This document shows positions 1-10,881 of a DNA stretch of 10,881 nucleotides, one piece after another (within the stretch, counting starts at the first letter, position 1; every line of letters starts with the position of its first letter). Location: NCBI GenBank assembly GCA_046351615.1, contig JAXLYF010000011.1:1-10881 (forward strand). Reading direction: 5' to 3'. Below the pieces are notes generated by a model, which saw only the letters and a list, made by a program, of their open reading frames with translations, searched no databases and was not told where the DNA came from. The translations under genes were made by a program, and so were the position numbers. This DNA comes from Polyangia bacterium (lineage in GTDB: Bacteria > Myxococcota_A > Polyangia > Palsa-1104 > JAEUJZ01).

Positions 1-413
1 AGCGGCGATAGGTCGGAGACGTGTCCCCACGCCAGCTTCAGCGACACGAGGTTTGCTGATATCGGCCACAGCAGGCGTAGGTCGCTTGGCGGGTTTCTTT
101 TGGCAAAGAAGACGCACGTAAGCTCTCGTCGATTGGCCAGATCGGTCAGCGATTGAATGTCAAACGCCGGCAGCCTACTGTCCAATAGCAGCCGTGCGAG
201 CGAGATCTTGAACTTCCGCGCGAGCTTCCTGCCGCGCTCAATGTTCGCGGGAACACCAGTACAGACCATGCGAAACAGATAATCGGGTAGCAGCGGTGCG
301 GGATCGACGCCCTGCGCAGCGCACAGCGCCTTTCCTTGTGCGACCTCTGCACGATCGTCACTACAGATCAATGCAAGCAGCGGATCCAGTGATGCTGACA
401 GCGGAGGTGACAT
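1..413 (-). CDS. hypothetical protein; only the 5' part is in the window (ATG at 413-411, ORF runs off the left edge)
   Basis: I translated the reverse complement by hand: MSPPLSASLDPLLALICSDDRAEVAQGKALCAAQGVDPAPLLPDYLFRMVCTGVPANIERGRKLARKFKISLARLL... with no stop through position 1. It is absent from the supplied track, presumably because it is open-ended. Composition is protein-like and GC matches the high-GC flank. No family recognised. Confidence 0.35.
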   Translation of the reverse strand, partial: MSPPLSASLDPLLALICSDDRAEVAQGKALCAAQGVDPAPLLPDYLFRMVCTGVPANIERGRKLARKFKISLARLLLDSRLPAFDIQSLTDLANRRELTCVFFAKRNPPSDLRLLWPISANLVSLKLAWGHVSDLSP

Positions 414-578
414 GGAGTCTTGATGCTACCACAAACCGACGAAGCGCTGCGCCCACGATGGGGATCGGCGCATTCGGTAAAAAGGCATATCAAGACAATA
501 TACCAATAAAAAGATCACTTGTCAGGGCCTTGACGACTTTAGGATGGATGGTGAAATTAAGCAAAACGGAGGCTGAAT

Positions 579-1082
579 ATGGCAAAAAAATTTCCGGTTC
601 ACCCATTCATTGAAAAGCTCACCAAAGGTAACAATTCAGCGGTGACGCTCAGGGCGCTTCGTGGCTTCATCGGTCATGGACCTACAGAAGACATCATCAG
701 AATCTATCTGGACCTATCGCTGGATCGCTATATCGATGTTCCAGAACAATATGTTCATCATGTAAAAAATCAAAACAAAGCAGAAACAGAGCATGAGCCT
801 TCTGAGATCTGGCTTGATGCAAAGACGCCACTAACGCTGGACGATCTATATCGCATCGTGCTGCAAGGTGGCTGGATTGGACCCGTTGAAAATCCAATCA
901 AACCGAAACCAACTGTAGTGAATCCGATCATTGAAAAAGTGAATCTGGACATTCACGCAGATCGAAGTTCTTCTTATTCAACGATTGGAGCCGATAAGAG
1001 AGGGGGAACCATCGAACTAGATCTTGATAAAGATAAGAAGCCAAAGCCTCCGAATCCAAAACCGAAGCGTGGTCGCTCGTAG
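579..1082 (+). CDS. hypothetical protein (167 aa) with a Lys/Pro-rich C-terminus; encoded in the lower-GC island
   Basis: ATG is preceded by GGAGG at a 7-nt spacing (..aaacGGAGGctgaatATG). The ORF is markedly more AT-rich than its flanks. The C-terminal tail is KKPKPPNPKPKRGRS. No recognisable domain. Confidence 0.55.
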   Translation: MAKKFPVHPFIEKLTKGNNSAVTLRALRGFIGHGPTEDIIRIYLDLSLDRYIDVPEQYVHHVKNQNKAETEHEPSEIWLDAKTPLTLDDLYRIVLQGGWIGPVENPIKPKPTVVNPIIEKVNLDIHADRSSSYSTIGADKRGGTIELDLDKDKKPKPPNPKPKRGRS

Positions 1083-1153
1083 GGAAGCTTGCGCTAGCAA
1101 CTGGGTATAACGGACGCGCCAGTGGCCGTCTCTTGACATGCTGAGGGCTCAAC

Positions 1154-2545
1154 ATGCGTACACTTTCGCTGCTAGGAACGAGTCTGCTGATGGCTGTGAC
1201 GACAATGGGCTGTCGTCCCATGTTGCCAAGCTTGCCGCAGTCTCGCAATGAAATGGCCAAGGCGTTGGATCATCTTCAGTGGTATACAGATGCCTATGGC
1301 TTTGGTGCAATGTCTACGCCCTTGTTTGTAAACCCAGATGAGATGTTTCACTTTCGACTCTCTGGCGTTTCGGCCAACACATTCTTTGATGCAGCCAGAA
1401 AAGAAATCAATGTCCGTCACGCTGGCGCGGGTATGAGCTTGTTAAGCGTTGGAACCAGCCTGACCGGACAGTTTGATATCGCTGCAATTCAGCAAGGCTT
1501 GGCAGCGCAGTCGAACTACCAGGCAGAAATGGCGACCGTTCAGGAAAAAAGACGCGTACTAGATGCCGCTGCGCGCCGGGAATACGAAGCAGATCGACTG
1601 GCCGCCCAAGCCGTCACGGATCCAATAGAGCGAGAGAGAAAGCTGGCGGAGGCGGATCGGAAGCTGGCTGCCAGCCTGTCTGGGCCTGCCGCAGATGCGA
1701 GTCCGAAGCCAGCTGTGACCTCAGGCGCTACCGCTGATGCCGCCAAGTCAACCAGCACATCTTCACAGCAGCTGGCCTTTCCGCAGAGCTTGATGGCTGC
1801 GAGCTCAGCAAGTCCATCCAATGAGATGCGCAGTGCCCTGCTGATGGCTGCCGGGGATACGGCCACCTATGCGATCCTGTCTCTCCTCGGCGAGCCCGAG
1901 AAAATGAGCCAATTTACGGGACAGAAGGTCTTGTTTGGCGTCTCGACCGTATCCGTCAATCCGGGCTGGCTGACAACGCAGAACTTCGCAGCCGATGTGT
2001 CAACCAAAGTCTCGATGACGTATGTCCCAGCTCGTCAGGTTGTACGTGATGCACTGATTGAGCACTTAAACACAATTGCCAAACAACCCACAGACAAAAG
2101 CCCAGACAAAATCCAAGACAGATCACAGACTACACAGAAGGCATCAGCGGCGAATTCATCAAATGCGTTCACTCAGCTGAGTCAGTGCATTACGGAATCG
2201 CTTCAGGTGGCCACCCCGGATGTTTCATCGTGGTGTGATGATTTTGAATCTGAACCAAAGAAGACCCTTGAGAAGATATCAGAGCCTTATCATCAAGAGC
2301 TGCTGAATCGATACATCCTGCGCTCCTGTAAGCCCAGTGATGTCTTGGTTTCGGCGGTGTCGCCGATGTCTGATGCGCAGCTGCTGGACTCACAGAGCTC
2401 GCTGAGTCGCCAGGTTGAGCTGGCCGCGCGAATCCAGCTTGCGCTGAGCTATGCAGGTGCCAAGGCCGCTGCCTTTCACCTGATCACATCTTCCCTTTCC
2501 GACGGAGAATTTGGCCGAGGAAGGGTTCTAGGGATTTGGCGATAG
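1154..2545 (+). CDS. putative secreted/lipoprotein, Ala/Ser/Thr-rich with a coiled-coil-like middle; the 3' end reads into the IS element, so the native C-terminus is probably altered
   Basis: GAGGG lies 8 nt upstream of the ATG. The N-terminus MRTLSLLGTSLLMAVTTMGC looks like a signal peptide with a lipobox-like Cys20. The last ~29 codons (from ~2458) lie inside the proposed IS left inverted repeat and overlap the transposase 3' end by 60 nt on the opposite strand. Confidence 0.6.
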   Translation: MRTLSLLGTSLLMAVTTMGCRPMLPSLPQSRNEMAKALDHLQWYTDAYGFGAMSTPLFVNPDEMFHFRLSGVSANTFFDAARKEINVRHAGAGMSLLSVGTSLTGQFDIAAIQQGLAAQSNYQAEMATVQEKRRVLDAAARREYEADRLAAQAVTDPIERERKLAEADRKLAASLSGPAADASPKPAVTSGATADAAKSTSTSSQQLAFPQSLMAASSASPSNEMRSALLMAAGDTATYAILSLLGEPEKMSQFTGQKVLFGVSTVSVNPGWLTTQNFAADVSTKVSMTYVPARQVVRDALIEHLNTIAKQPTDKSPDKIQDRSQTTQKASAANSSNAFTQLSQCITESLQVATPDVSSWCDDFESEPKKTLEKISEPYHQELLNRYILRSCKPSDVLVSAVSPMSDAQLLDSQSSLSRQVELAARIQLALSYAGAKAAAFHLITSSLSDGEFGRGRVLGIWR

Positions 2546-3833
2546 CGAAGAGTTCTTGTTTGGTGTGAATCTGGATAAGCTGCATGGCGCCGAGGAAAAG
2601 CAGTGCTCCACGCAGCAGCATCGTGGGTCCGACGGGATCTTTGCGGCGACCCGACCAGCCGCCGAGCTTGGCGAGGGTTTGTCGGAGCTGGACAGACTTG
2701 TCATCGCTGGCGGCGCTGAGTTGATAGACGCAGGAGGCGGCCATCTGCACGAGGAGCAGACGACGGGCGATGCGCTCGGCGTTTTCCTGATGCCAGCATT
2801 CGAGGCGGAAGCCGATTTTTTCGAAGTAGAACAGGCGCTCGATTTTCCAGCGGCACAGGTAGCGTTCCACGACGGAAAACGCAGGCTCCGCAAGGTTTGT
2901 GAGGAGCACCCAGCGCAGCGTCTTTTCACCCTCGCGGTGCAGCTCAGACACGACGACACGCACGGTCAGCGGCGCGCCGGGCTGCGGCTTCTGACGGCGC
3001 TTCTGCACCCCTCGCAGCGACGGACGAACCAGTGTCACCTGCGTCTGTGCGACCCTCAGCTCGTAGGTGGCTTGGCCCCGCGCGAGGCGACGGGTCACTT
3101 CGCCGACGGGCTGGAGCTTCAGCGACAGAAGGTGCGTGCCGAGCGAGCGCTGCTGGCCATGCACAGCGACGAGACGCGACAGGTTTCGGCAGCGCACGAC
3201 ATAGCGACGGTCCGCCAGATGCCGAAGCAGCTTCACGTCGTCGAACTCGCGATCGAACAAGTGAATCAGGTGGCGCTGCGGCAGGAGTTTCTCGACGGCA
3301 TCGACCGCTCGCTCGGCTTGCTCAAGATGGTCCACAAACGGCAGCGGCTCGTCGCACAGCGAAGACAGAACCCCGGACTGAGCGCGCAGCTCAGTAACCG
3401 CTGCACCGATGGGAGAACCCTCGACAATGACGAGGGTCTGAAACAGCTCGTAGCCAAAGGTGTGGTCGTTACCGACGGGAATCAAGTCCTCTTTGCGCTG
3501 ATGTCCCGTGTAATTGAGGACCGACACATCATGTGCGACACATGCCGTTTGCGACGGAGAAACCTGCTCTCGCAGCCGTGCCTGCATCGGCGCATGCAGA
3601 GCTGTCCTCGTCACACCCTCGTGGTCGAAAAAGCGATAGGCCCCTCGCGTAAAGGCCTCCTGAGTGTCGTCGGCAGGAGCCAGACACCCGAGGCTGCTCG
3701 GCGAATGCCCGCGCACCATCGACTGCACGAGCTTGGCTGCGCGACGACGGAGTCGCTGATCCGGCAGGGGCACATCTTGAAGCAAGGTCTCAAGGTTCAG
3801 CATGCTCCGTCGCAAAAGCAGCTTCCTTGCCAG
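2458..3833 (-). mobile_element. IS4-family (Tn5/IS50-like) insertion sequence; boundaries approximate
   Basis: Contains a single transposase ORF. Candidate imperfect terminal inverted repeats are 2458-2477 (tgccaaggccgctgcctttc) and the reverse complement of 3813-3832 (tggcaaggaagctgcttttg), matching at 15 of 20 positions. No clean target-site duplication is visible. The ~1.38 kb length with a 1.33 kb ORF is compact, as in IS50. Confidence 0.55.
2484..3815 (-). CDS. DDE transposase, IS4 family (Tn5 Tnp-like)
   Basis: C-terminal signature YLCRWKIERLFYFEKIGFRLE corresponds to the Y-(2)-R-(3)-E-(6)-K motif of Tn5 Tnp (YTHRWRIEEFHKAWKTGAGAE). N-terminal similarity to Tn5 Tnp is visible by eye (RGAYRFF.. 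vs EGAYRFI..; DQRLRRRAAKLV vs DPRRTARLVNV). The track start is TTG at 3815, preceded by AAGGAAG at a 6-nt spacing. An alternative ATG at 3803 gives MLNLETLL. Confidence 0.85.
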   Translation of the reverse strand: MRRSMLNLETLLQDVPLPDQRLRRRAAKLVQSMVRGHSPSSLGCLAPADDTQEAFTRGAYRFFDHEGVTRTALHAPMQARLREQVSPSQTACVAHDVSVLNYTGHQRKEDLIPVGNDHTFGYELFQTLVIVEGSPIGAAVTELRAQSGVLSSLCDEPLPFVDHLEQAERAVDAVEKLLPQRHLIHLFDREFDDVKLLRHLADRRYVVRCRNLSRLVAVHGQQRSLGTHLLSLKLQPVGEVTRRLARGQATYELRVAQTQVTLVRPSLRGVQKRRQKPQPGAPLTVRVVVSELHREGEKTLRWVLLTNLAEPAFSVVERYLCRWKIERLFYFEKIGFRLECWHQENAERIARRLLLVQMAASCVYQLSAASDDKSVQLRQTLAKLGGWSGRRKDPVGPTMLLRGALLFLGAMQLIQIHTKQELFAIAKSLEPFLGQILRRKGKM

Positions 3834-3941
3834 CCCGAAAAAAGCGCTCTGCCCGTCGCTGAGGGCAACTCATCGGGCGCTTACATCAGGCCCTCAGTCG
3901 TCCGAATCCCGGATCCCAGACGGCCAGCCGGACATGTGACC

Positions 3942-5099
3942 ATGGGAAAGGCCGCTGCAGATACCTTTGGACAGTGGGCCAAGCGACAACAAGAGGACAT
4001 TCAGAGCCGATCGGCCAATGTGGTGGTGAACTCGTACAGCATGTCCGGTGGTATCTTTGGGTTTCAGGTTGGACCGAAGCTGCTCGCTTCGCCATCACAG
4101 AGCAGCGGCTCTGCCTCTGTAGAAAAGCTAACCCGTCAGTCGTTCCCAACACTGCTGATCATGGGCTATGACGAGCAGGAAGTGGGGGCTCGGGTTCTGA
4201 TTAAAAAAGAAGAATCGACCAAAAAGACCTACTGTCACGTAGTAGAGCCAGACCTCAGACTTGATACCATGACAAGCTGGAAGCCATTGAATAAAAAAGC
4301 GGACGTGTTGTCAGAAAAAGAGTTCTATGCAGTGCGTCATCAGGCAAGAGATGCGTGGCTTGGACTTATGGCATCCGATGACAGGCTAAAGAAACATCGA
4401 GGATCTGGGCTGATTGCGAACGCCGATCCGATGAAGTTGTATACAGATCGACAGCACTACTATAAGCATATGGAACATCTGCTGTCACGACTAGAAGGTG
4501 TTGGTTATCATACAACACTTCCGATTGAAGCACTCAAGGCACAGCTTGCGAAAAAGGATGCTTGTGCCAAGTGTGAAGCTCCAAAGATCACGGCAGTATC
4601 GCCTGATGTGATCTGGCTTGGGCGAGACCAAGCAGGCAAGCCAATGTCCAAGACGGTACAGATTGTGCTGGTCGGCACTGGGCTGGACAAAGTGAATGAA
4701 GCGCAGATCGAGCAAGGCAGCGCCTTCGGGTTCAATTCGGAAGGGAAGGAGTCCAAGAAACCAGTGATTGAGAAAGTTGGCGGCTCGCGTTTGCTGACGT
4801 TGCGCGTTGACGCTGCGGACAGCCCACTGGTGTTGACGCTGCCAGTCAAGGATCCTGACGTTGTGATTCGACTGCCGGCCATCAAGGTGGCGATGGAGCC
4901 AGCACCGAGCACTCCGCTGAAGATTGAACACACGAAACCATCGGGGACGGAGTCCTTCAGCTTCCCGAAGGGAACGTCAGATGATGTCATCAAGGCAGTG
5001 GTGCAAAAAGACGCTCCGGTCAGAGCTGCCCCAGCGAGCGGACAGCCGGATCGCAAGCCCATCCAGCAGCCGCTCAAGCCAGGGCAGCCAACCCAGTAG
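3942..5099 (+). CDS. hypothetical protein (385 aa) with a Pro-rich C-terminus; this is the likely real gene inside the 2556-5099 fusion ORF
   Basis: First ATG after the IS right end (an alternative GTG is at 3936). Sequence is lower-GC and Lys-rich (e.g. attaaaaaagaagaatcgaccaaaaag). Everything in this frame upstream of 3942 is antisense to the transposase. No strong Shine-Dalgarno sequence and no recognised domain. Confidence 0.5.
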   Translation: MGKAAADTFGQWAKRQQEDIQSRSANVVVNSYSMSGGIFGFQVGPKLLASPSQSSGSASVEKLTRQSFPTLLIMGYDEQEVGARVLIKKEESTKKTYCHVVEPDLRLDTMTSWKPLNKKADVLSEKEFYAVRHQARDAWLGLMASDDRLKKHRGSGLIANADPMKLYTDRQHYYKHMEHLLSRLEGVGYHTTLPIEALKAQLAKKDACAKCEAPKITAVSPDVIWLGRDQAGKPMSKTVQIVLVGTGLDKVNEAQIEQGSAFGFNSEGKESKKPVIEKVGGSRLLTLRVDAADSPLVLTLPVKDPDVVIRLPAIKVAMEPAPSTPLKIEHTKPSGTESFSFPKGTSDDVIKAVVQKDAPVRAAPASGQPDRKPIQQPLKPGQPTQ

Positions 5100-5163
5100 T
5101 CCAATGTGGTTGCTGACGTAGTCCCAGCAGCCTTACCGTCGCACTGGGCACAGCTTCGCAACT

Positions 5164-5172
5164 TTTGCCATA
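5164..5172 (+). promoter_or_regulatory. candidate extended -10 element (TGcCATAAT) upstream of the 5192/5216 gene
   Basis: tttTGcCATAATggg lies 20-45 nt upstream of the candidate starts. No convincing -35. The judgement is by sigma70 analogy only, and the host promoter consensus is unknown. Confidence 0.2.
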
Positions 5173-5191
5173 ATGGGCTGGCGCGATCGGG

Positions 5192-6160
5192 ATGGTGCGA
5201 CGCGCGGCTGGGGGAATGAGCAAGCGGCTCCGCTCACTACTTGTGGAAGAAGGCATGGTGTCGGCGCTGCGGATGGCGCAGGCGCAGGCGCTACAGGTTC
5301 GACGCCGAGGCTGCCTGGATACGTGCTTGCTGGAGCTGCGTGCGATCGACGAGCCATCGCTCTTGCCGTACCTGAGTCGCGCGGCGGAGCTGCCGGTGCT
5401 GGCGGACGGACTGCTCGGGACGCAGCGTCCGCTGCCTGATGTGCTGACGGTGTTTCCGCTGTCGCTGGCCGAGCGCTTTTCAGCGGTGCCGGCGCAGCTG
5501 CTCAGCGATGGTGTGCTGCAAGTGCTGGTGACGGTCGATGCCGAGGCGTCGGAGCTGGAGACGCTGTCGCACATCCTCGCTTACCGGATTGAGCCGTGGG
5601 TGGTCTGCGAGTTTCGCTATCACGAAGCGCTGTCGCTGTGCTTTGGTCAGCCGCTGTCGCCGCGCTTTGTCGAGCTGCTGGCGCAGAGTCAGCGGGTTCG
5701 CCAGCGACGAGCGATACCGGTTCCACTGTGGAAAGGTCACTTGCCGCGCTTCGGGAGCCTGGATGCTGCGCGAACGCTGCTGGCCCTGCGTCCGCCTGCG
5801 CCGCTTCCTCCGCCCATCGTGGAACCGACGGTGGAACCAGTCGTGGAACCAGTCGTGGAACCAGTCGTGGAACCAGTCGTGGAACCGAGCGTGGAACCGA
5901 GCGTGGAGCCGAGCGTGGAACCGGCTGTGGAACCGAGCGTGGAACCGAGCGTGGAACCGAGCGTGGAACCGAGCGTGGAACCGGCTGTGGAACCGAGCGT
6001 GGAACCGAGCGTGGAACCCGTTGTGGGCGATCCCGATGTCGTGACGGTCAAAGAGCATCGTCGTCGGCAGTATTACGGTCCGGGTCGCAGCTTGGTTCGC
6101 TGGATCACGGTGAAGAGCTACACCCACCGTCGCGCAGCGCCCCATGTAAAGTCGAGCTAG
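5192..6160 (+). CDS. protein with an N-terminal region resembling the T2SS-E/MshE N-terminal (T2SSE_N) domain, followed by a (VEPx)17 repeat linker and a short basic C-terminus
   Basis: [62 protein letters not shown] and ..[47 protein letters not shown] match the two halves of the T2SSE_N pattern (LGELLVexG.i..eqL..AL..Q ... vA.adP.d....del.f.tg..vepv.a...ei..al...yg). The start could instead be ATG 5216 (MSKRL...). The tandem-repeat region is 5819-6022. Confidence 0.75.
5819..6022 (+). repeat. 17 tandem copies of a 12-bp unit (gtggaaccgagc and variants) encoding VEP[TVSA]
   Basis: Read directly from the sequence. Units stay in codon phase. Only the third/fourth codon of each unit varies (acg/gtc/agc/gct/gtt). 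Preceded by PPAPLPPP. Confidence 0.95.
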
Positions 6161-6226
6161 CGACTGCGGACGCGGCGCGGTGAATCGATCCCAGCGCAGT
6201 GCCAAAAGCGGTTACGATCGAAGGGC

Positions 6227-6868
6227 TTGGACCCGCGCATCTACTCATCCAGTCAGGTCTGTCGTGTTCATGTCGAGCTGACGACTCGCTGTAACGCTGC
6301 GTGTCCGATGTGTCCGCGAACGCGAGCGGGCGGCGCACCCAACCCGAACCTGCCGCTTGTGGAGCTTCGGCTTACCGACGTGCAGACGATGTTTCCACCG
6401 GAGGTGCTTGGGCGACTCAAGCAGTTTCTGTTCTGTGGCAACTACGGCGATGCGCTGACGGCGCGCGATACGCTTCCGATCTGTGAGTACCTGCGGGCGC
6501 ACAACCCGAAGCTGCGGATCAAGCTGGTGACGAACGGCTCGGGACGCGATGCGGCGTTTTGGTCGCAGCTTGCCAAGGTGGTGACGACGGTGACGTTTAG
6601 CATCGACGGACTGGGAGACACCAACCAGCTCTATCGTCGTCGCACCAGCTGGAATCGCGTGATGGACTCGGTGCGCGCGTATCTGGCTGCGGGCGGACGG
6701 GCCGAGTGGGACTTCCTGGTCTTTCGTCACAACCAGCATCAAGTTGCGGAAGCCGAAGCGCTCGCGCGTCAGCTTGGCTTTGCCAATCATGTGGCGCTGC
6801 CGCTCGTCGGGAAGCAGCGCCTGTGCCGGCTGCGTGGGAAGTGTTCGGGAAGTCGGCGCTGCAGGTGA
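6227..6868 (+). CDS. radical SAM enzyme, N-terminal fragment of a gene split by a 3-kb insertion (probable pseudogene)
   Basis: VHVELTTRCNAACPMCPR carries the canonical CX3CX2C [4Fe-4S]/SAM cluster motif. LFCGNYGDALT corresponds to the GGEP-like SAM-binding motif, LRIKLVTNGS to the xTNG motif, and VTFSIDG to the ribose motif. Only 213 aa, against 330-450 for typical family members. Start is TTG in the track, with no in-frame ATG. After the 15-bp repeat at 6772-6786 the frame runs 27 more codons of probable non-native sequence to a stop. Confidence 0.75.
   Translation: MDPRIYSSSQVCRVHVELTTRCNAACPMCPRTRAGGAPNPNLPLVELRLTDVQTMFPPEVLGRLKQFLFCGNYGDALTARDTLPICEYLRAHNPKLRIKLVTNGSGRDAAFWSQLAKVVTTVTFSIDGLGDTNQLYRRRTSWNRVMDSVRAYLAAGGRAEWDFLVFRHNQHQVAEAEALARQLGFANHVALPLVGKQRLCRLRGKCSGSRRCR
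6772..6786 (+). repeat. 15-bp perfect direct repeat, left copy (gcttggctttgccaa), inside the radical SAM N-fragment
   Basis: An identical 15-mer is at 9820-9834, in the same codon phase (g|ctt|ggc|ttt|gcc|aa) in both ORFs. Flanking bases differ (a/t here, c/g there). Confidence 0.8.
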
Positions 6869-7189
6869 TGCGCGTGGGCGTGCGTAGGCTGTAGGGAACG
6901 ACCAGCACAGCGCGCAGGTAGACCCAGCTGCGGTTTTTCATCGCGGATGTCGCGGAGTTGGGCGGCGGACATGGCGTAGACCGTCGGATCGCTGGCAAGG
7001 TTGTGCTATTGTGGATCGCAGTGTCTCGGTTGTCCGTCGCTGGTGGGGGAAATGCACTGGCCTTTTAGTGCGTGCGTCCAGCCCTGGATGCCACGTCATT
7101 TCCGGTGCTTGGCGTGGCGTCCGAGTGAATCGGTTTGGACAGCTCGCGTCGACGCACCCATCGAAGCCTGAGCGCAAGGAGTCGCTACC

Positions 7190-9088
7190 ATGCCGCTGTA
7201 TGAGTCAGACCGCAAACCACACACGCCCGATCCGTGGAGCGCTCCCAAGCCACAAGCGGCGGCTCCATCGATTGCTGCGATGGGCGATGTAAAGCCGCAC
7301 GTCTCCGCAGTGGGTGGCACCAAGTCGCAAGCTGCTCCGGCGACGGCCAGCGAAGGTGGTGGCGCGTGGCAAGGAGCAGCCAAAGGCGCGGCGATAGGTG
7401 CGGCGGTGGGATCTCTGTTGGGACCGCTCGGTGCGGGCATTGGCGGCATCCTGGGCGGCGTGATTGGGAATCGAACCGGGGAAAAGGAAACCGCTCATCC
7501 CGAACGGTTTGATCCGACCGAAAAGATCAAGATCACCGACGCGGAGCGCAAGCAAGCAGAGACGATGCGTGGTGACCTCAGCAAGTCGCTGGAAAAGCTG
7601 GAGCTGCCGCAGAAACAGCGCGATCAGATCCTGGCACAGTGCAAAGGGCTGTCGGGAGATGCGCTCGTCGAGCATATGCGGATCATTGGGCACGCGCTGC
7701 AGACGGAAAACGCCGACCGAGCCCTGAGTGCGTATGCAGACATCACGCAGATGGCAGCAGCGGACAGCAAGCACGGTGGACGCATCGGCACAGACATCTT
7801 GGGAGAGCTGGTAACTGGCGTTGCGGACCGACGGACGGACAACGATCGCGGCATGGAAGGAATCTTGGGCGCCAAGCAAGCGCGTGAAGCGGCAGAGGCG
7901 CTCCTTAAGATGAGCGATGGCGACTTCAAGGCCACAACAGAGCTGCTTCAGCAGGCCGGAAAAGCTCCCGATGGGAAGGTGTCAGCGACGGCGGATGCTG
8001 GGGCAGAACGGTCGCTGCTTCTGCAAGCGGTGGCTGCGCGCAAAGACGACTTCAGTGGTGCGGATGCGCAGAAGGATATCGCGACGCTGACCTCGTTTGC
8101 GAAAGACATCCGAGGCATGGAGCGCAAGGAGCTGATTCGCACGACCACGGCGATTGATGTCGATGGGGACAATACCTCGACGCTGAAGCCAACGGGAATG
8201 GATGCCGCAGCGCCTGTTGGTTTGCTTCAACGGATGTGGAATACGGTGTTTCCTCCCAATCCTGCGGACCAACGGGCCGATAACGACGGTCTGTTTCAGC
8301 GCTACACCCAATCGTGCGCACCGACGACAGCGCAGATGACCAAAGCGGCAGCAGACCCGATCTATGCGCGCGCGCTTCACAAGAGCGGCTTGAACGATCC
8401 GGGCCAGGACAACCTGGCGGCCAAGGAACAGAAAGACATCTTGGAGCGGCTGGGTGGCGCGGATGGAACGCCGGATCAGGCCGTCTCACGACTCGGACAG
8501 AAAGCGCGCGGCGACTTTAGTACGGACAGCAAGAACCTGCTGCGGAGCGGGGCACTGTCTGATGATCAGTTCAAGCTGCTGCGTGACTATGCAGACGGAA
8601 AAGATCTCAGCAAAGGGAATCAAGCAGCGCTTACCAAGGCGCTTGATACGATGCGCGCGGCCAACAAAGGACACCCGAGCGAGTCAGAGATTCAGGCGAT
8701 GCGCGACAACTCGCGACAGACCGAAGGCGACGGAATGTACTTGGATGATGCGCTCAATGACCACGCCAAGAGCGCGACGCACGTCAAGTACACCGATCAC
8801 GATGCGCAGGATGTCAGCGGAGCGGTCAAACAGACAGCGCTGGATACCTGGGCAGAGAAGCTGCGCGATGGACAAGACGTTCCGCTGCGAGTGGGCTGGA
8901 CGGCGGGAGGTGGTCACTTTATGGCGTGTACCGATGTGCGCGGACGAGGTGCTGATCGCAAGTTCCTGATCTCTGATCCGTGGACGGGTACTACGTCGTG
9001 GGTGGCGGAAAAAGCGATCCAAGATGGCTCATGGACCAGCACGTTTGAGGGTGAAGCGGGCTCGCTCACGCACCTGTACTATGAGTAG
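7190..9088 (+). CDS. large uncharacterised protein (632 aa): Pro/Ala-rich N-terminus, glycine-zipper membrane segment, helical middle, and a C-terminal putative papain-fold Cys/His/Asp hydrolase-like domain
   Basis: AAGGAG lies 9 nt upstream of the ATG. Glycine zipper: GAAKGAAIGAAVGSLLGPLGAGIGGILGGVIG. C-terminal signature: candidate nucleophile in FQRYTQSCAPTTAQM, candidate His in GWTAGGGHFMACTD, and Asp 20 residues later in KFLISDPWTG. This His-x(13-20)-Asp spacing is typical of papain-like (clan CA) peptidases and transglutaminase-like enzymes. No signal peptide. Coding-like composition throughout. Confidence 0.8.
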   Translation: MPLYESDRKPHTPDPWSAPKPQAAAPSIAAMGDVKPHVSAVGGTKSQAAPATASEGGGAWQGAAKGAAIGAAVGSLLGPLGAGIGGILGGVIGNRTGEKETAHPERFDPTEKIKITDAERKQAETMRGDLSKSLEKLELPQKQRDQILAQCKGLSGDALVEHMRIIGHALQTENADRALSAYADITQMAAADSKHGGRIGTDILGELVTGVADRRTDNDRGMEGILGAKQAREAAEALLKMSDGDFKATTELLQQAGKAPDGKVSATADAGAERSLLLQAVAARKDDFSGADAQKDIATLTSFAKDIRGMERKELIRTTTAIDVDGDNTSTLKPTGMDAAAPVGLLQRMWNTVFPPNPADQRADNDGLFQRYTQSCAPTTAQMTKAAADPIYARALHKSGLNDPGQDNLAAKEQKDILERLGGADGTPDQAVSRLGQKARGDFSTDSKNLLRSGALSDDQFKLLRDYADGKDLSKGNQAALTKALDTMRAANKGHPSESEIQAMRDNSRQTEGDGMYLDDALNDHAKSATHVKYTDHDAQDVSGAVKQTALDTWAEKLRDGQDVPLRVGWTAGGGHFMACTDVRGRGADRKFLISDPWTGTTSWVAEKAIQDGSWTSTFEGEAGSLTHLYYE

Positions 9089-9091
9089 ACT

Positions 9092-9703
9092 GTGAAACGT
9101 ACCATGCAGTCGCGTCGCTGTGCTCTCAAACAAGGACTGGCTATGATTGCGATGTTCGGTTTCTCTACAATCGCGGATGATGCCGTCGGTGGTGCTGCCA
9201 AACCAAGCGTTGTTTGGACCGATGTTGCTGCGCGTGCGGAGTCAACTCCAGCGGCGGATCTGATGGCAGCCAAAGCCAAGATCGATGCGCTGGCTGAACC
9301 GGTACGGAAACGGGCCGAGACGCTGCTCACGCAGGTTGCTGGGGTCACGCTTGATGCGGTGGGAATCCAGCAAGCAGTGACGTTGCTCAACAGCGAGGTT
9401 CCGGGCTTCTTTCGGTACGCTCCGGGCGAGCGTCCTGGGCAAGACCACCCACACGGAACGGCTGTACGCGGCGCAGCACTTCTGCTTCTGCGGGGACTGT
9501 TGTTTTCTGCGGGCAAGCGCGCCAAGTCGCACAATCATCCGGCGTCTGCCACCGCTGGGATCTTGGGTGGACTGCGGGCCTGCCGGGTTTTCCGTCCGCT
9601 CGATCAGACCAAGCTGGAAGAAGATCTGATGCTGGTTGTTTCGTCGAAGGTCTACTTTGCGGCGGAACAGATCTTGGCCGACAAGAGCACAGCCAAGCAG
9701 TAG
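9092..9703 (+). CDS. small protein (203 aa) with a twin-arginine-like N-terminal signal; putative exported partner of the upstream gene
   Basis: It starts 3 nt after the upstream stop (GTG 9092, or ATG 9104 giving MQSRRCALKQGLAMIAMFGFSTIA..). SRRCALK fits the Tat consensus S/T-R-R-x-F-L-K and is followed by a hydrophobic h-region. No recognised domain. The tight spacing suggests an operon with 7190-9088. Confidence 0.65.
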   Translation: MKRTMQSRRCALKQGLAMIAMFGFSTIADDAVGGAAKPSVVWTDVAARAESTPAADLMAAKAKIDALAEPVRKRAETLLTQVAGVTLDAVGIQQAVTLLNSEVPGFFRYAPGERPGQDHPHGTAVRGAALLLLRGLLFSAGKRAKSHNHPASATAGILGGLRACRVFRPLDQTKLEEDLMLVVSSKVYFAAEQILADKSTAKQ

Positions 9704-9790
9704 TCGGTCCACTTTCCCGAGTCTGCGTGACGGATGATGGCGGCGGGCTCGCGTGCGTACTTCCCCGCGCATCGGACTCGGTAGCGGGGA

Positions 9791-10363
9791 ATGCGAGCGA
9801 AGGATCTCGACGAGCACACGCTTGGCTTTGCCAAGTTCAACGTGAAGCGCTCGCAGCGGTTCTTGGTCGATGGTCAGCCGGCGGACCGCTTTCCGGTGCT
9901 GCGCGCGGCGGGAGGCATCGACTACTACTTAGAGCTTCCGACGCTGCCCGACTATCAGAACAGCGGCTTTGTGAAGCTATCGAGCTTGCAGCGGCGCGGT
10001 CAGAGCTATGCCGACTATCTGTCCTCAACGCGAATTTCCTGCAAAGCGATGCGTGACGAGCAGGTCTACCTGAGCGCAACCGGCCATCTGTTTCCGTGCT
10101 GCTGGCTTGGACAGATTTATGACTCGTGGCCGTCACCGATGGCGGCAGAGATTCGCTCGCGCATTGCGGAGCTTCCGGACGGACTGGATGCGCTGGATCT
10201 TCGAAAGCGCTCGTTTGCCGAGATCATCGATGGTCCGTTCTTTCAAGATCTGGTTGTGCGCGGCTGGCATCCCGAAGCGCCGCAAGGTCGGCTGTCAGCC
10301 TGTGGTCGCATGTGCGGAGAGATCGACACGCACTCACGTCAGTGGGAATCAAGCAGCGTGTGA
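9791..10363 (+). CDS. radical SAM enzyme, C-terminal SPASM/twitch-like fragment of the gene split at 6786/9820 (probable pseudogene)
   Basis: SCKAMRDEQVYLSATGHLFPCC matches C-x13-G-x4-C of the SPASM/twitch auxiliary-cluster motif. A terminal CGRMCG gives CX3C. The sequence upstream of 9820 (MRAKDLDEHT) is probably not native coding. Joined to the 6227 fragment at the repeat, it gives a ~362-aa in-frame protein. Confidence 0.75.
   Translation: MRAKDLDEHTLGFAKFNVKRSQRFLVDGQPADRFPVLRAAGGIDYYLELPTLPDYQNSGFVKLSSLQRRGQSYADYLSSTRISCKAMRDEQVYLSATGHLFPCCWLGQIYDSWPSPMAAEIRSRIAELPDGLDALDLRKRSFAEIIDGPFFQDLVVRGWHPEAPQGRLSACGRMCGEIDTHSRQWESSSV
9820..9834 (+). repeat. 15-bp perfect direct repeat, right copy (gcttggctttgccaa)
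   Basis: Identical to 6772-6786 and in the same codon phase within the downstream radical SAM C-fragment. Confidence 0.8.
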
Positions 10364-10376
10364 TACGCTCAGCGAA

Positions 10377-10881
10377 ATGAGCAGATGGGCTCTCGTATTG
10401 GTGCTGGCGCTCGGCTGTAGCAAAGGCGGCATGCTGTCCGATGGGTCTGTTGACCATCCAGATGCGCACCTAGATCCACTGCGTGACCTGGCTACGCAAG
10501 CAGATGACTTGCAGCACGGGGCTGAAGATCTGGGCTCGGCTGATCTACTGACCGTGGACCAGCGTGGCACCGATGCTGCCATGTCTGCGGATCTGAAGCC
10601 TGCGCCGGATCTGAGCGTGCCAGCGGATCTGAAGCCGCCACCGGATTTGGCTGTGCCTGGAGACTTGGCGACGCCACCGGACTTGGCATATCCGGTCAGT
10701 CAGACCGTCGATATCTTCGTCGATAACACCTGCAAGATGGATGTCTTGCCGAAGAAGTTCGACGTTCCTGCGGGCAGCTCGCTCAAGCTCACCTACGTAA
10801 ACCGCAGCCGCGACTACAAGGTCGACATCTGGGCCTCGTATGGCGGTGGCTTTACCGACCTTCTGCCCGGCGCTTCGTGGG
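10377..10881 (+). CDS. putative lipoprotein with Pro-Asp-Leu repeat linker; N-terminal part only (continues past the right edge)
   Basis: I translated it by hand: MSRWALVLVLALGCSKGG.. gives a signal peptide plus lipobox-like Cys. It is followed by ADLKPAPDLSVP/ADLKPPPDLAVP/GDLATPPDLAYP, then VDIFVDNTCKMDVLPKKFDVPAGSSLKLTYVNRSRDYKVDIWASYGGGF.. with no stop to 10881. It is absent from the track because it is open-ended. Confidence 0.6.
   Translation, partial: MSRWALVLVLALGCSKGGMLSDGSVDHPDAHLDPLRDLATQADDLQHGAEDLGSADLLTVDQRGTDAAMSADLKPAPDLSVPADLKPPPDLAVPGDLATPPDLAYPVSQTVDIFVDNTCKMDVLPKKFDVPAGSSLKLTYVNRSRDYKVDIWASYGGGFTDLLPGASW
10587..10694 (+). repeat. three imperfect tandem 36-bp repeats encoding a [AG]DL[KA][PT][AP]PDL[SA][VY]P linker
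   Basis: Units: gcggatctgaagcctgcgccggatctgagcgtgcca / gcggatctgaagccgccaccggatttggctgtgcct / ggagacttggcgacgccaccggacttggcatatccg. Confidence 0.8.

Follow-up and report, generated by a model that had tools for sequence, protein, structure and literature searches.

The window analyzed here, a 10,881-nucleotide stretch of DNA from an uncultured Polyangia bacterium (positions 1 to 10,881 of contig JAXLYF010000011.1, assembly GCA_046351615.1), contains a gene for a radical S-adenosylmethionine (SAM) protein that is split in frame by a 3-kb segment carrying two genes. The segment lies between two exact copies of the 15-nt sequence GCTTGGCTTTGCCAA, and a closely related contig holds the same gene whole, with one copy of this sequence. 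The explanation we find probable, while holding it with some reserve, is that the segment is an integrative cassette, flanked by attachment (att) sites and devoid of an integrase, which is similar to the cis-mobilizable elements (CIMEs) and owes its movement to a site-specific recombinase, probably of the tyrosine type, acting in trans.

An empty site establishes that a radical SAM gene has been interrupted

The sequence GCTTGGCTTTGCCAA is present exactly twice in the window, at positions 6772-6786 and 9820-9834 of the plus strand, whereas two matches were obtained in none of 200 shuffled sequences. Both copies share the codon phase of the open reading frames (ORFs) that contain them (6227-6868 and 9791-10363), and fusing nucleotides 6227-6786 to 9835-10363 yields 1089 nt that encode a 362-aa protein without a frameshift. 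A preliminary description of this DNA, made from the sequence alone, had reported the repeat, its phase, and the joined ORF of about 362 aa, and all of these details are confirmed at the positions it gave. Because about 5% of order-2 Markov simulations of the 4.9-kb region produce some exact 15-mer pair, the repeat alone is only moderately unusual and is not decisive. It is the empty site, and not the repeat itself, that settles the matter of insertion.

This empty site was found in the best match to the joined protein (P0001, 99% identity), which is encoded by an intact gene on contig WBZX01000826.1 of assembly GCA_009612795.1 (hereafter L001). In blastn comparisons, window positions 5143-6786 correspond to L001 positions 8800-10479, and window positions 9820-10881 correspond to L001 positions 10465-11526. 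The stretch shared by the two alignments is precisely the 15-mer, of which L001 has a single copy with contiguous flanks. Thus, nucleotides 6787-9819 have been inserted into this coding sequence, as the preliminary description had proposed, in an event that duplicated 15 bp and removed no host bases. The gene is also intact in sister lineages at 92% identity or less, and a search with the N-terminal half revealed no other lineage in which the gene is split at the same site. That description had also raised the case of relatives whose two halves are naturally separate genes. No such relative was found, and the two truncated matches that we examined (P0176 and P0010) are frameshifts rather than natural splits.

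The joined protein matches the Pfam Radical_SAM model (PF04055) over residues 16-166 with 38.3 bits (cut-off 29.5). Of its 410 homologues, the best 120 are almost all full-length (335-408 aa), and more than 100 full-length homologues align to it without gaps. When it is aligned with eleven of them (46-99% identity), the junction (..QLGFA|KFNVK..) is free of gaps, such that the joined sequence behaves as one contiguous radical SAM homologue. The CX3CX2C cysteines are conserved in this alignment, and residues L183, G184, F188, and K191 near the junction are invariant. Five cysteines of the C-terminal half (C256, C275, C276, C343, and C347) are invariant as well and fit an auxiliary cluster. The motifs that had been noted earlier are all present, with CX3CX2C in the N-terminal half and CX13GX4C, CC, and CX3C in the C-terminal half. 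As for the proposed SPASM/twitch-like character of the latter, no SPASM or twitch hidden Markov model (HMM) from Pfam or NCBIfam matches the C-terminal half, and the N_Twi_rSAM model matches only residues 59-160 of the joined protein, far below its cut-off; the designation is therefore a statement about motifs only.

Table 1 Features of the interrupted radical SAM locus. Positions are those of the window; cores and arms are given without strand.
Feature	Position	Strand	Description
Radical SAM 5′ part, codons 1-186	6227..6786	+	in the ORF list; PF04055; 96-100% identical to the intact gene of L001
Left 15-bp core (putative attL core)	6772..6786		GC-TTGGC-TTT-GCCAA; encodes (Q)LGFA(K); perfect 5-3-5 palindrome
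Inserted segment, 3033 bp	6787..9819	+	absent from the intact allele; G+C content 0.61, like the flanks
Read-through tail	6787..6868	+	27 insert codons and a stop (6866-6868); N-terminal fragment product of 213 aa
Left arm, 403 bp	6787..7189		no recognizable gene; first bases TCATGTG (6787-6793)
Cargo gene 1, 632 aa	7190..9088	+	disordered N terminus with glycine zipper, helical domain, C-terminal papain-fold-like cysteine protease domain (predicted)
Cargo gene 2, 203 aa	9092..9703	+	twin-arginine signal-like N terminus (SRRCALK); no known domain
Right arm, 116 bp	9704..9819		ATG at 9791; last bases CACAC (9815-9819)
Right 15-bp core (putative attR core)	9820..9834		second exact copy of GCTTGGCTTTGCCAA
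Radical SAM 3′ part, 176 codons	9835..10363	+	CX13GX4CC ... CX3C; 99.2% identical to L001

In the occupied allele, the 5′ part of the gene carries the CX3CX2C cluster motif and ends in the left 15-bp core, from which translation would run on into the insert. The in-frame ATG available to the C-terminal fragment, which would be of 190 aa, is supplied by the insert (Table 1). Among occupied alleles, the C-terminal fragment shows six synonymous and no nonsynonymous changes, and the N-terminal fragment shows no synonymous and five conservative nonsynonymous changes, which are too few to judge continued use.

A second exact 15-mer direct repeat, GGGAATCAAGCAGCG, occurs at 8615-8629 within the gene for the 632-aa protein and at 10344-10358 at the 3′ end of the radical SAM gene. 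Its two copies lie in different reading frames, and the encoded segment is not conserved in homologues of the cassette. Two exact 15-mer pairs arise together in less than 2% of simulations, and this second repeat is probably due to chance.

Public assemblies contain an alternative allele and an end-to-end junction

Assemblies from ENA, Logan, JGI, and NCBI include at least 20 contigs that encode the exact 632-aa product of the first cargo gene. Its cluster comprises 56 contigs, and one cluster member is named as coming from a metagenome-assembled genome (MAG) of a Polyangia bacterium. Every contig that reaches beyond the insert places it between the two radical SAM halves, and the occupied allele is the commoner one. 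Conversely, an exact 24-mer from the left end of the insert retrieves only two contigs from the metagenome_contigs collection, both of which represent this locus, and no other copies or donor were seen there.

The metagenomic source of these data, with several strains mixed in the samples, invites the concern that the arrangement is an artefact of assembly or binning in which a chimeric join was made through a short repeat. The fact that the same arrangement occurs in at least 20 contigs, produced from many samples by MEGAHIT, SPAdes-type, and Logan assemblies, speaks against such an error. Furthermore, the 15-bp repeat is shorter than every k used, and single-nucleotide polymorphisms (SNPs) in the insert and in the flanks co-vary as expected of real haplotypes. 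An artefact is exceedingly improbable, and we regard it as effectively refuted.

Several contigs end at positions that are informative about other alleles. Logan assemblies are built from 31-mers (PMC12424806), and Logan contigs L010 and L011, along with five similar places, are exactly 3093 bp in length and span window positions 6757-9849; contig L037 likewise starts at 6757. This length equals 30 + 3033 + 30, which is that of a bubble arm in a k = 31 graph. Therefore, another allele that diverges exactly at the boundaries between core and insert coexists with the occupied one in those samples, and it would most simply be the empty allele known from L001.

A different set of ends coincides with the outer edges of the cores. 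Contigs L026 and L027, which represent four samples in all, are exactly 3063 bp in length (6772-9834) and consist of core, insert, and core, and the SPAdes-type MAG contig L033 starts exactly at 6772. Branching at these positions is expected only if the core also has neighbors other than the radical SAM flank, both before and after it, as would be the case if the right end of the insert were also joined, through one core, to a left end. Contig L009, a MEGAHIT k141 assembly, reads this junction directly, in that it contains window positions 5843-9834 and then positions 6772-6931 again, wherein the second left end differs from the first by four SNPs over about 150 positions. A 15-bp repeat is too short to collapse a graph with k = 141 or k = 31, and the reads must therefore contain the junction. 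The single-repeat junction that the preliminary description had advised looking for is thus present in public assemblies (directly in L009 and by implication in L026, L027, and L033), where it is seen in at least six samples and with three assemblers. It may stem from an excised circle or from tandem copies, of which the circle is the reading adopted below.

The age of the insertion can be gauged from sequence diversity. Among the alleles of the locus there are 41 variable sites in the 3033-bp insert, compared with 7 in 612 bp and 16 in 1047 bp of the flanks. The SNP density of the insert equals that of its flanks, and thus the insert has occupied this site throughout the divergence of the strains.

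Junction and target are arranged like recombinase core sites

The end-to-end junction, CACACGCTTGGC-TTT-GCCAATCATGTG, is a 27-bp imperfect palindrome in which 10 of 12 arm positions are complementary. This score is reached by none of the 10,854 27-nt windows in the window. The first bases of the insert, TCATGTG, form the right half of this palindrome, and its last bases, CACAC, belong to the left half. The unoccupied site (putative attB), AGCTTGGC-TTT-GCCAAGTT, scores 8 of 12, and the hybrid sites at the two borders (putative attL and attR) score 6-7 of 12. A layout with symmetric attP and attB and asymmetric attL and attR would be that of the core-type sites of a site-specific recombinase. 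The odd-length centre, GCTTTGC, would suit an overlap of about 7 bp and hence, probably, a tyrosine recombinase.

An orthologue with 85% identity from another lineage (L036) provides a variant of the target. At its positions 4001-4015 the sequence reads GCTCGGCTTTGCCAA, with one mismatch that breaks the palindrome. This orthologue is uninterrupted apart from a probable low-coverage frameshift.

The architecture of the site also bears on the idea that the insertion was a one-off, illegitimate event at a 15-bp microhomology, in which foreign or paralogous DNA was captured by template switching, or by a Campbell-type crossover of a circular fragment that by chance contained the 15-mer, with no dedicated machinery involved. 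The insert would then have spread by descent and homologous recombination, the 15-bp repeats would later have served for a tandem amplification that created the junction, and the ancestral state would be the empty allele. Such a history is consistent with an insert that is found at a single site with no other copies, that contains no recombinase, and that is as diverse as its flanks, so old and stably inherited. Exact 15-mer pairs, which appear at about 5% per 4.9 kb, are not extremely rare here, and short palindromes are known hot-spots for replication slippage. Less easily accommodated are the boundaries, both of which are exact, with no host bases lost or gained, and a palindrome that runs past the microhomology into both insert ends with a score (10 of 12) unmatched by other 27-nt windows. 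The junction, moreover, recurs in at least six samples and three assemblers, and the adjacent left ends in L009 differ at 4 of about 150 positions, which is unlike a simple duplication. A length of 15 bp is also below the homology usually needed for RecA-dependent exchange. We judge an accident of this kind to be unlikely, while granting it some weight.

The insert carries no recognizable mobility gene

Neither of the two insert ORFs contains an integrase, transposase, Cas1, or polymerase domain, as determined by scans with Pfam, NCBIfam, and PADLOC. The earlier statement that the segment carries no integrase or transposase of its own is thereby upheld. Recombinase remnants were sought in the two arms by listing left-arm stop-free translations of at least 35 aa and scanning the main ones against Pfam, and no Pfam match (E ≤ 1) was obtained in the stop-free translations of either arm. 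The insert has no terminal inverted repeats, with the best end-to-end alignment scoring 19 against 16.9 ± 2.3 for shuffled sequences. No inverted-repeat pair joins the insert ends, and repeat searches with a seed of 6 were also empty. An Rfam search of the whole window (E ≤ 1) gave only a spurious miRNA match outside the insert, no tRNA was found, and promoter or terminator signals did not rise above those of shuffled sequences. Beyond the window, the insert DNA has no match in plasmids, the 632-aa protein has no match in phages, and a degenerate form of the 27-mer junction has no match in the viral_contigs collection.

These absences are relevant to the possibility of transposition, in which the insert would be a nonautonomous derivative. 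Transposases often have palindromic targets, and the duplication might have been made in trans by a casposase (Cas1-solo) or by an ISTde1-type transposase of the IS1202 family, either of which would leave a long target-site duplication. In a variant of this proposal, the duplication would be of 13 bp (TTGGCTTTGCCAA) and the element would have the short imperfect ends TCATGTG...CACACGC. Casposases use a "15-bp yardstick", and mini-casposons integrate in trans in vitro at a specific site (PMC5137440). Natural casposons in tandem share one duplication (PMC4779613), which would explain the end-to-end junction, and the ISTde1 subgroup makes repeats of 15-17 bp. Yet no terminal inverted repeats extend beyond 4-5 bases, no Cas1, family B polymerase (PolB), or DDE transposase is encoded by the insert, and the element is present at one site only. 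The sole transposase in the window is of the IS4 family and has its own ends and a different, 11-bp duplication. The bacterial (family 3) casposons in a 2016 survey were all intergenic (PMC4779613). In the 13-bp variant, the palindrome centre is one base off the centre of the 15-mer, which would require a 1-in-16 coincidence. Transposition in either form strikes us as improbable.

Individual element classes were rejected on similar grounds. A casposon is matched only by the 15-bp duplication, and the insert lacks Cas1, the family B polymerase, and terminal inverted repeats. For an ISTde1/IS1202 element, or a miniature inverted-repeat transposable element (MITE) derived from one, only the repeat length fits; there are no inverted repeats and no transposase, and the left-end 24-mer was found only at this locus. 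A dif/Xer site is not indicated, given that the junction is without the GATAA-N6-TTATG core of the published Myxococcales dif (PMC2731167). An integron cassette was dismissed on finding no GTTRRRY/RYYYAAC core at either border and no integrase within 10 kb in L001.

Two cargo genes form a recurrent pair

The AlphaFold2 model of the 632-aa protein is confident, with a predicted local distance difference test (pLDDT) score of 81.7. On the basis of this model, its C-terminal domain is predicted to be like a papain-fold (clan CA-like) cysteine protease. Foldseek matches are weak and point in the same direction, and a PDB sequence search with the protein gave no match. Residues Q370, C376, H576, and D596 are invariant across 25 homologues, one of which has a LysM domain. 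The glycine-zipper match near the N terminus is weak and sub-threshold.

For the second cargo gene, gene callers choose a start at 9143 that would shorten the product to 186 aa. The twin-arginine motif recurs in its homologues as ARRSVLK and TRRSFF. A single-sequence AlphaFold2 model of the 203-aa protein is unusable (pLDDT 40). The SNPs among alleles of the locus comprise 19 synonymous and 1 nonsynonymous change in gene 1 and 8 synonymous and 3 nonsynonymous changes in gene 2. This synonymous excess indicates that both genes are under purifying selection.

In relatives (39-67% identity) the two genes are always paired, in unrelated contexts, and several of these two-gene cassettes adjoin remnants of mobile DNA. 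The pair may consist of a protease or toxin and a candidate periplasmic partner that confers inhibition or immunity, and the cargo is probably a secreted or contact-dependent cysteine protease. The ends of related cassettes (66-67% identity) share no sequence with the arms of the insert, and the TTGGCNNNGCCAA motif is absent from them.

Two of the related loci contain features of their own. Beside a 66%-identical cassette in L035 (7378-9578, minus strand) are a 371-aa ORF and scraps of mobile DNA. These include fragments that, as judged by eye, resemble an IS21-type transposase, and a C-terminal tyrosine-recombinase fragment (PF00589, E = 6e-8); there is no TTGGCNNNGCCAA at that locus. Beside a 66%-identical cassette relative in L017 (2884-4655, minus strand), an ISL3-family transposase gene abuts a different radical SAM gene, which is apparently frameshifted into fragments of 149 and 179 aa and has a CX3CX2C motif.

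A proposed route of integration and excision

Under the explanation we favor, the insert would be a small, nonautonomous cassette consisting of two cargo genes and an attachment site, with no recombinase. A circular form of this cassette, in which the right end, the 15-bp core, and the left end are contiguous, would have undergone recombination at the QLGFAK codons of the radical SAM gene, where the sequence matches. Conservative site-specific recombination would leave one core on each side, as attL and attR, with no host bases lost. The reverse reaction would restore the 362-aa ORF exactly and release the circle, and tandem arrays would arise if a second copy integrated at a site already occupied. 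The enzyme would have to act in trans, and the likeliest candidate would be a tyrosine recombinase from a helper element or from elsewhere in the chromosome; we infer both the class of this recombinase and its action in trans. The preliminary description had considered either a long duplication or site-specific integration and had called the mechanism unclear. That choice still stands, with the evidence now leaning to site-specific recombination in trans.

Several observations weigh against this route. No recombinase has been identified, and there is none within 10 kb of the site in L001. The element is found at one site only, which no helper element was seen to occupy. The insert has the SNP density of its flanks and is part of the majority allele, which is compatible with a fixed remnant and mixtures of strains. 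The end-to-end junction may stem from copies in tandem and not from a circle, and no contig of free-circle size was seen. Integration in the middle of a gene, without replacement of the 3′ end of that gene, is atypical for integrases. Finally, the extension of the palindrome past the 15-mer (5 of 7 positions, p ~0.013) is supportive and not conclusive.

A more far-reaching proposal is that the insert belongs to an undescribed class of minimal, recombinase-less cassettes, for which a recombinase, chromosomal or orphan, would mediate both insertion into a conserved coding sequence and precise excision from it, as a reversible off/on switch. We think this doubtful and grant it a small share of our confidence, given that the occupied and alternative alleles share samples, that the junction is present, and that excision would leave no scar. 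It is correspondingly improbable that the radical SAM gene is switched within populations while a toxin/immunity-like pair of protease and partner is carried along. Only with similar hesitation would we liken the system to integron cassettes or Xer-dependent modules, as an analogue that is directed at coding sequence. The features that are unusual, whichever explanation applies, are the 3-kb size, a mid-gene target that the element does not repair, and the lack of a visible helper. To these can be added population-level evidence for a coexisting alternative allele together with an end-to-end junction.

If the cassette is indeed moved in trans by a site-specific recombinase, then very small cargo modules can keep their mobility with only a 27-bp site. 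In Myxococcota, a phylum in which mobile elements are poorly charted, a conserved coding sequence would then serve such modules as a landing pad. The junction and the empty site provide a concrete attP and attB pair with which to seek the cognate recombinase. The locus also offers a natural case in which the gene for a radical SAM enzyme of unknown function is whole or split in co-occurring strains. If the insert is instead a fixed remnant, the locus is an ordinary strain-level insertion polymorphism.

A second polymorphism and the neighborhood of the locus

Upstream of the radical SAM gene, a 4.7-kb block (396-5142) is absent from contigs L001, L031, and L032, which contain 92 unrelated bases instead, and the block has no flanking direct repeat. 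Contigs L031 and L032 have the 3-kb cassette without this block, which shows the two polymorphisms to be independent of each other. Position 5143 is also the exact start of contig L002. The block has a lower G+C content (0.45-0.55 outside an insertion sequence, or IS) and contains a 167-aa ORF and an 819-aa ORF split by that IS.

This IS, of the IS4 family, occupies positions 2473-3958 and encodes a transposase on the minus strand at 2484-3815, whose match to NCBIfam transpos_IS4_3 (E = 1e-28) is below the cut-off. The terminal inverted repeats of the IS (2465-2489 and 3934-3958; 80%, about 17-25 bp) are imperfect, and its 11-bp target duplication, AAGGCCGCTGC, lies at 2462-2472 and 3948-3958. 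Removal of the IS joins 1154-2472 to 3959-5099 as one lipoprotein-like ORF of 819 aa. The insertion serves as an internal contrast to the 3-kb cassette, and its transposase was rejected as the mobilizer of the cassette on the grounds that its inverted repeats and 11-bp duplication differ from the borders of the insert.

Between the block and the radical SAM gene is an ORF for a 322-aa protein (5192-6160) with weak, sub-threshold N-terminal matches to MshEN and c-di-GMP-binding models. It contains a long VEP/SVEP repeat of the PT type that varies among strains in its number of copies, and the region is about 96% identical to L001, with indels. In L001, a leucine-rich repeat (LRR) protein is encoded upstream (7729-8727), and the conserved neighbors in the downstream region (11651-20671) include genes for a baeRF/Host_attach-family protein, a PP2C phosphatase with a cNMP-binding domain, and a TIR-TPR protein. 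The neighborhood of the locus is rich in signaling and defence-like genes.

Relation to known systems

The closest parallel to the proposed cassette comes from CIMEs, which are integrase-less cis-mobilizable elements that keep intact attL and attR sites (ICEberg 2.0, PMC6323972). In both cases, direct repeats equal to the attachment core flank an insert without genes for integration or transfer. The end-to-end junction, or a tandem arrangement, may be comparable to the accretion of a CIME with a helper element. The usual location of CIMEs is a tRNA gene or a gene's 3′ end, whereas this element, of only 3 kb, disrupts a protein-coding gene midway along its length. In addition, no helper integrative and conjugative element (ICE) or prophage is known at the present site, and the host is an uncultured Polyangia bacterium.

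The skin element of B. subtilis is a gene-interrupting element with its own recombinase, SpoIVCA, whose excision is developmentally programmed. The heterocyst nifD, hupL, and fdxN elements (PMC4874684) likewise split a gene in frame between short exact direct repeats, and their excision restores the ORF, as would be the case here. They differ from the present insert by encoding their own recombinases (XisA, XisC, and XisF) and by their developmentally programmed excision. An element of this kind was rejected for the present locus, where the insert is without a recombinase; the restoration of the ORF by excision was shown in silico and is accompanied by a natural intact allele.

Attachment sites of the phage lambda type have a 15-bp common core and a 7-bp overlap. 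The identical core is also 15 bp here, with inverted core-type arms around an odd-length centre (GCTTTGC), whereas no arm-type sites, integrase, or excisionase have been identified. Casposons resemble the insert in that they make a 14-15-bp duplication, select specific sites, and can target a protein-coding gene, and they form tandem arrays with one common duplication (PMC5137440, PMC4779613). They differ in their possession of Cas1, PolB, and terminal inverted repeats, and the known bacterial casposons are intergenic. Members of the ISTde1 subgroup of the IS1202 family also generate direct target repeats of 15-17 bp (bioRxiv 10.1101/2022.12.17.520857; PMC10132070), but are 1.5-kb ISs with inverted repeats of 24-26 bp and a DDE transposase, none of which is found here.

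Xer-dependent elements, such as integrative mobile elements exploiting Xer (IMEX) and pdif modules, resemble the insert in being small, recombinase-less modules and are moved by a host recombinase, as may be the case here, but the site described here is unlike the Myxococcales dif (..GATAA-N6-TTATG..; PMC2731167). Taken by analogy, the cassette would functionally resemble integrase-less, att-flanked elements, and its effect on the host gene would resemble that of the heterocyst gene-interrupting elements (PMC4874684).

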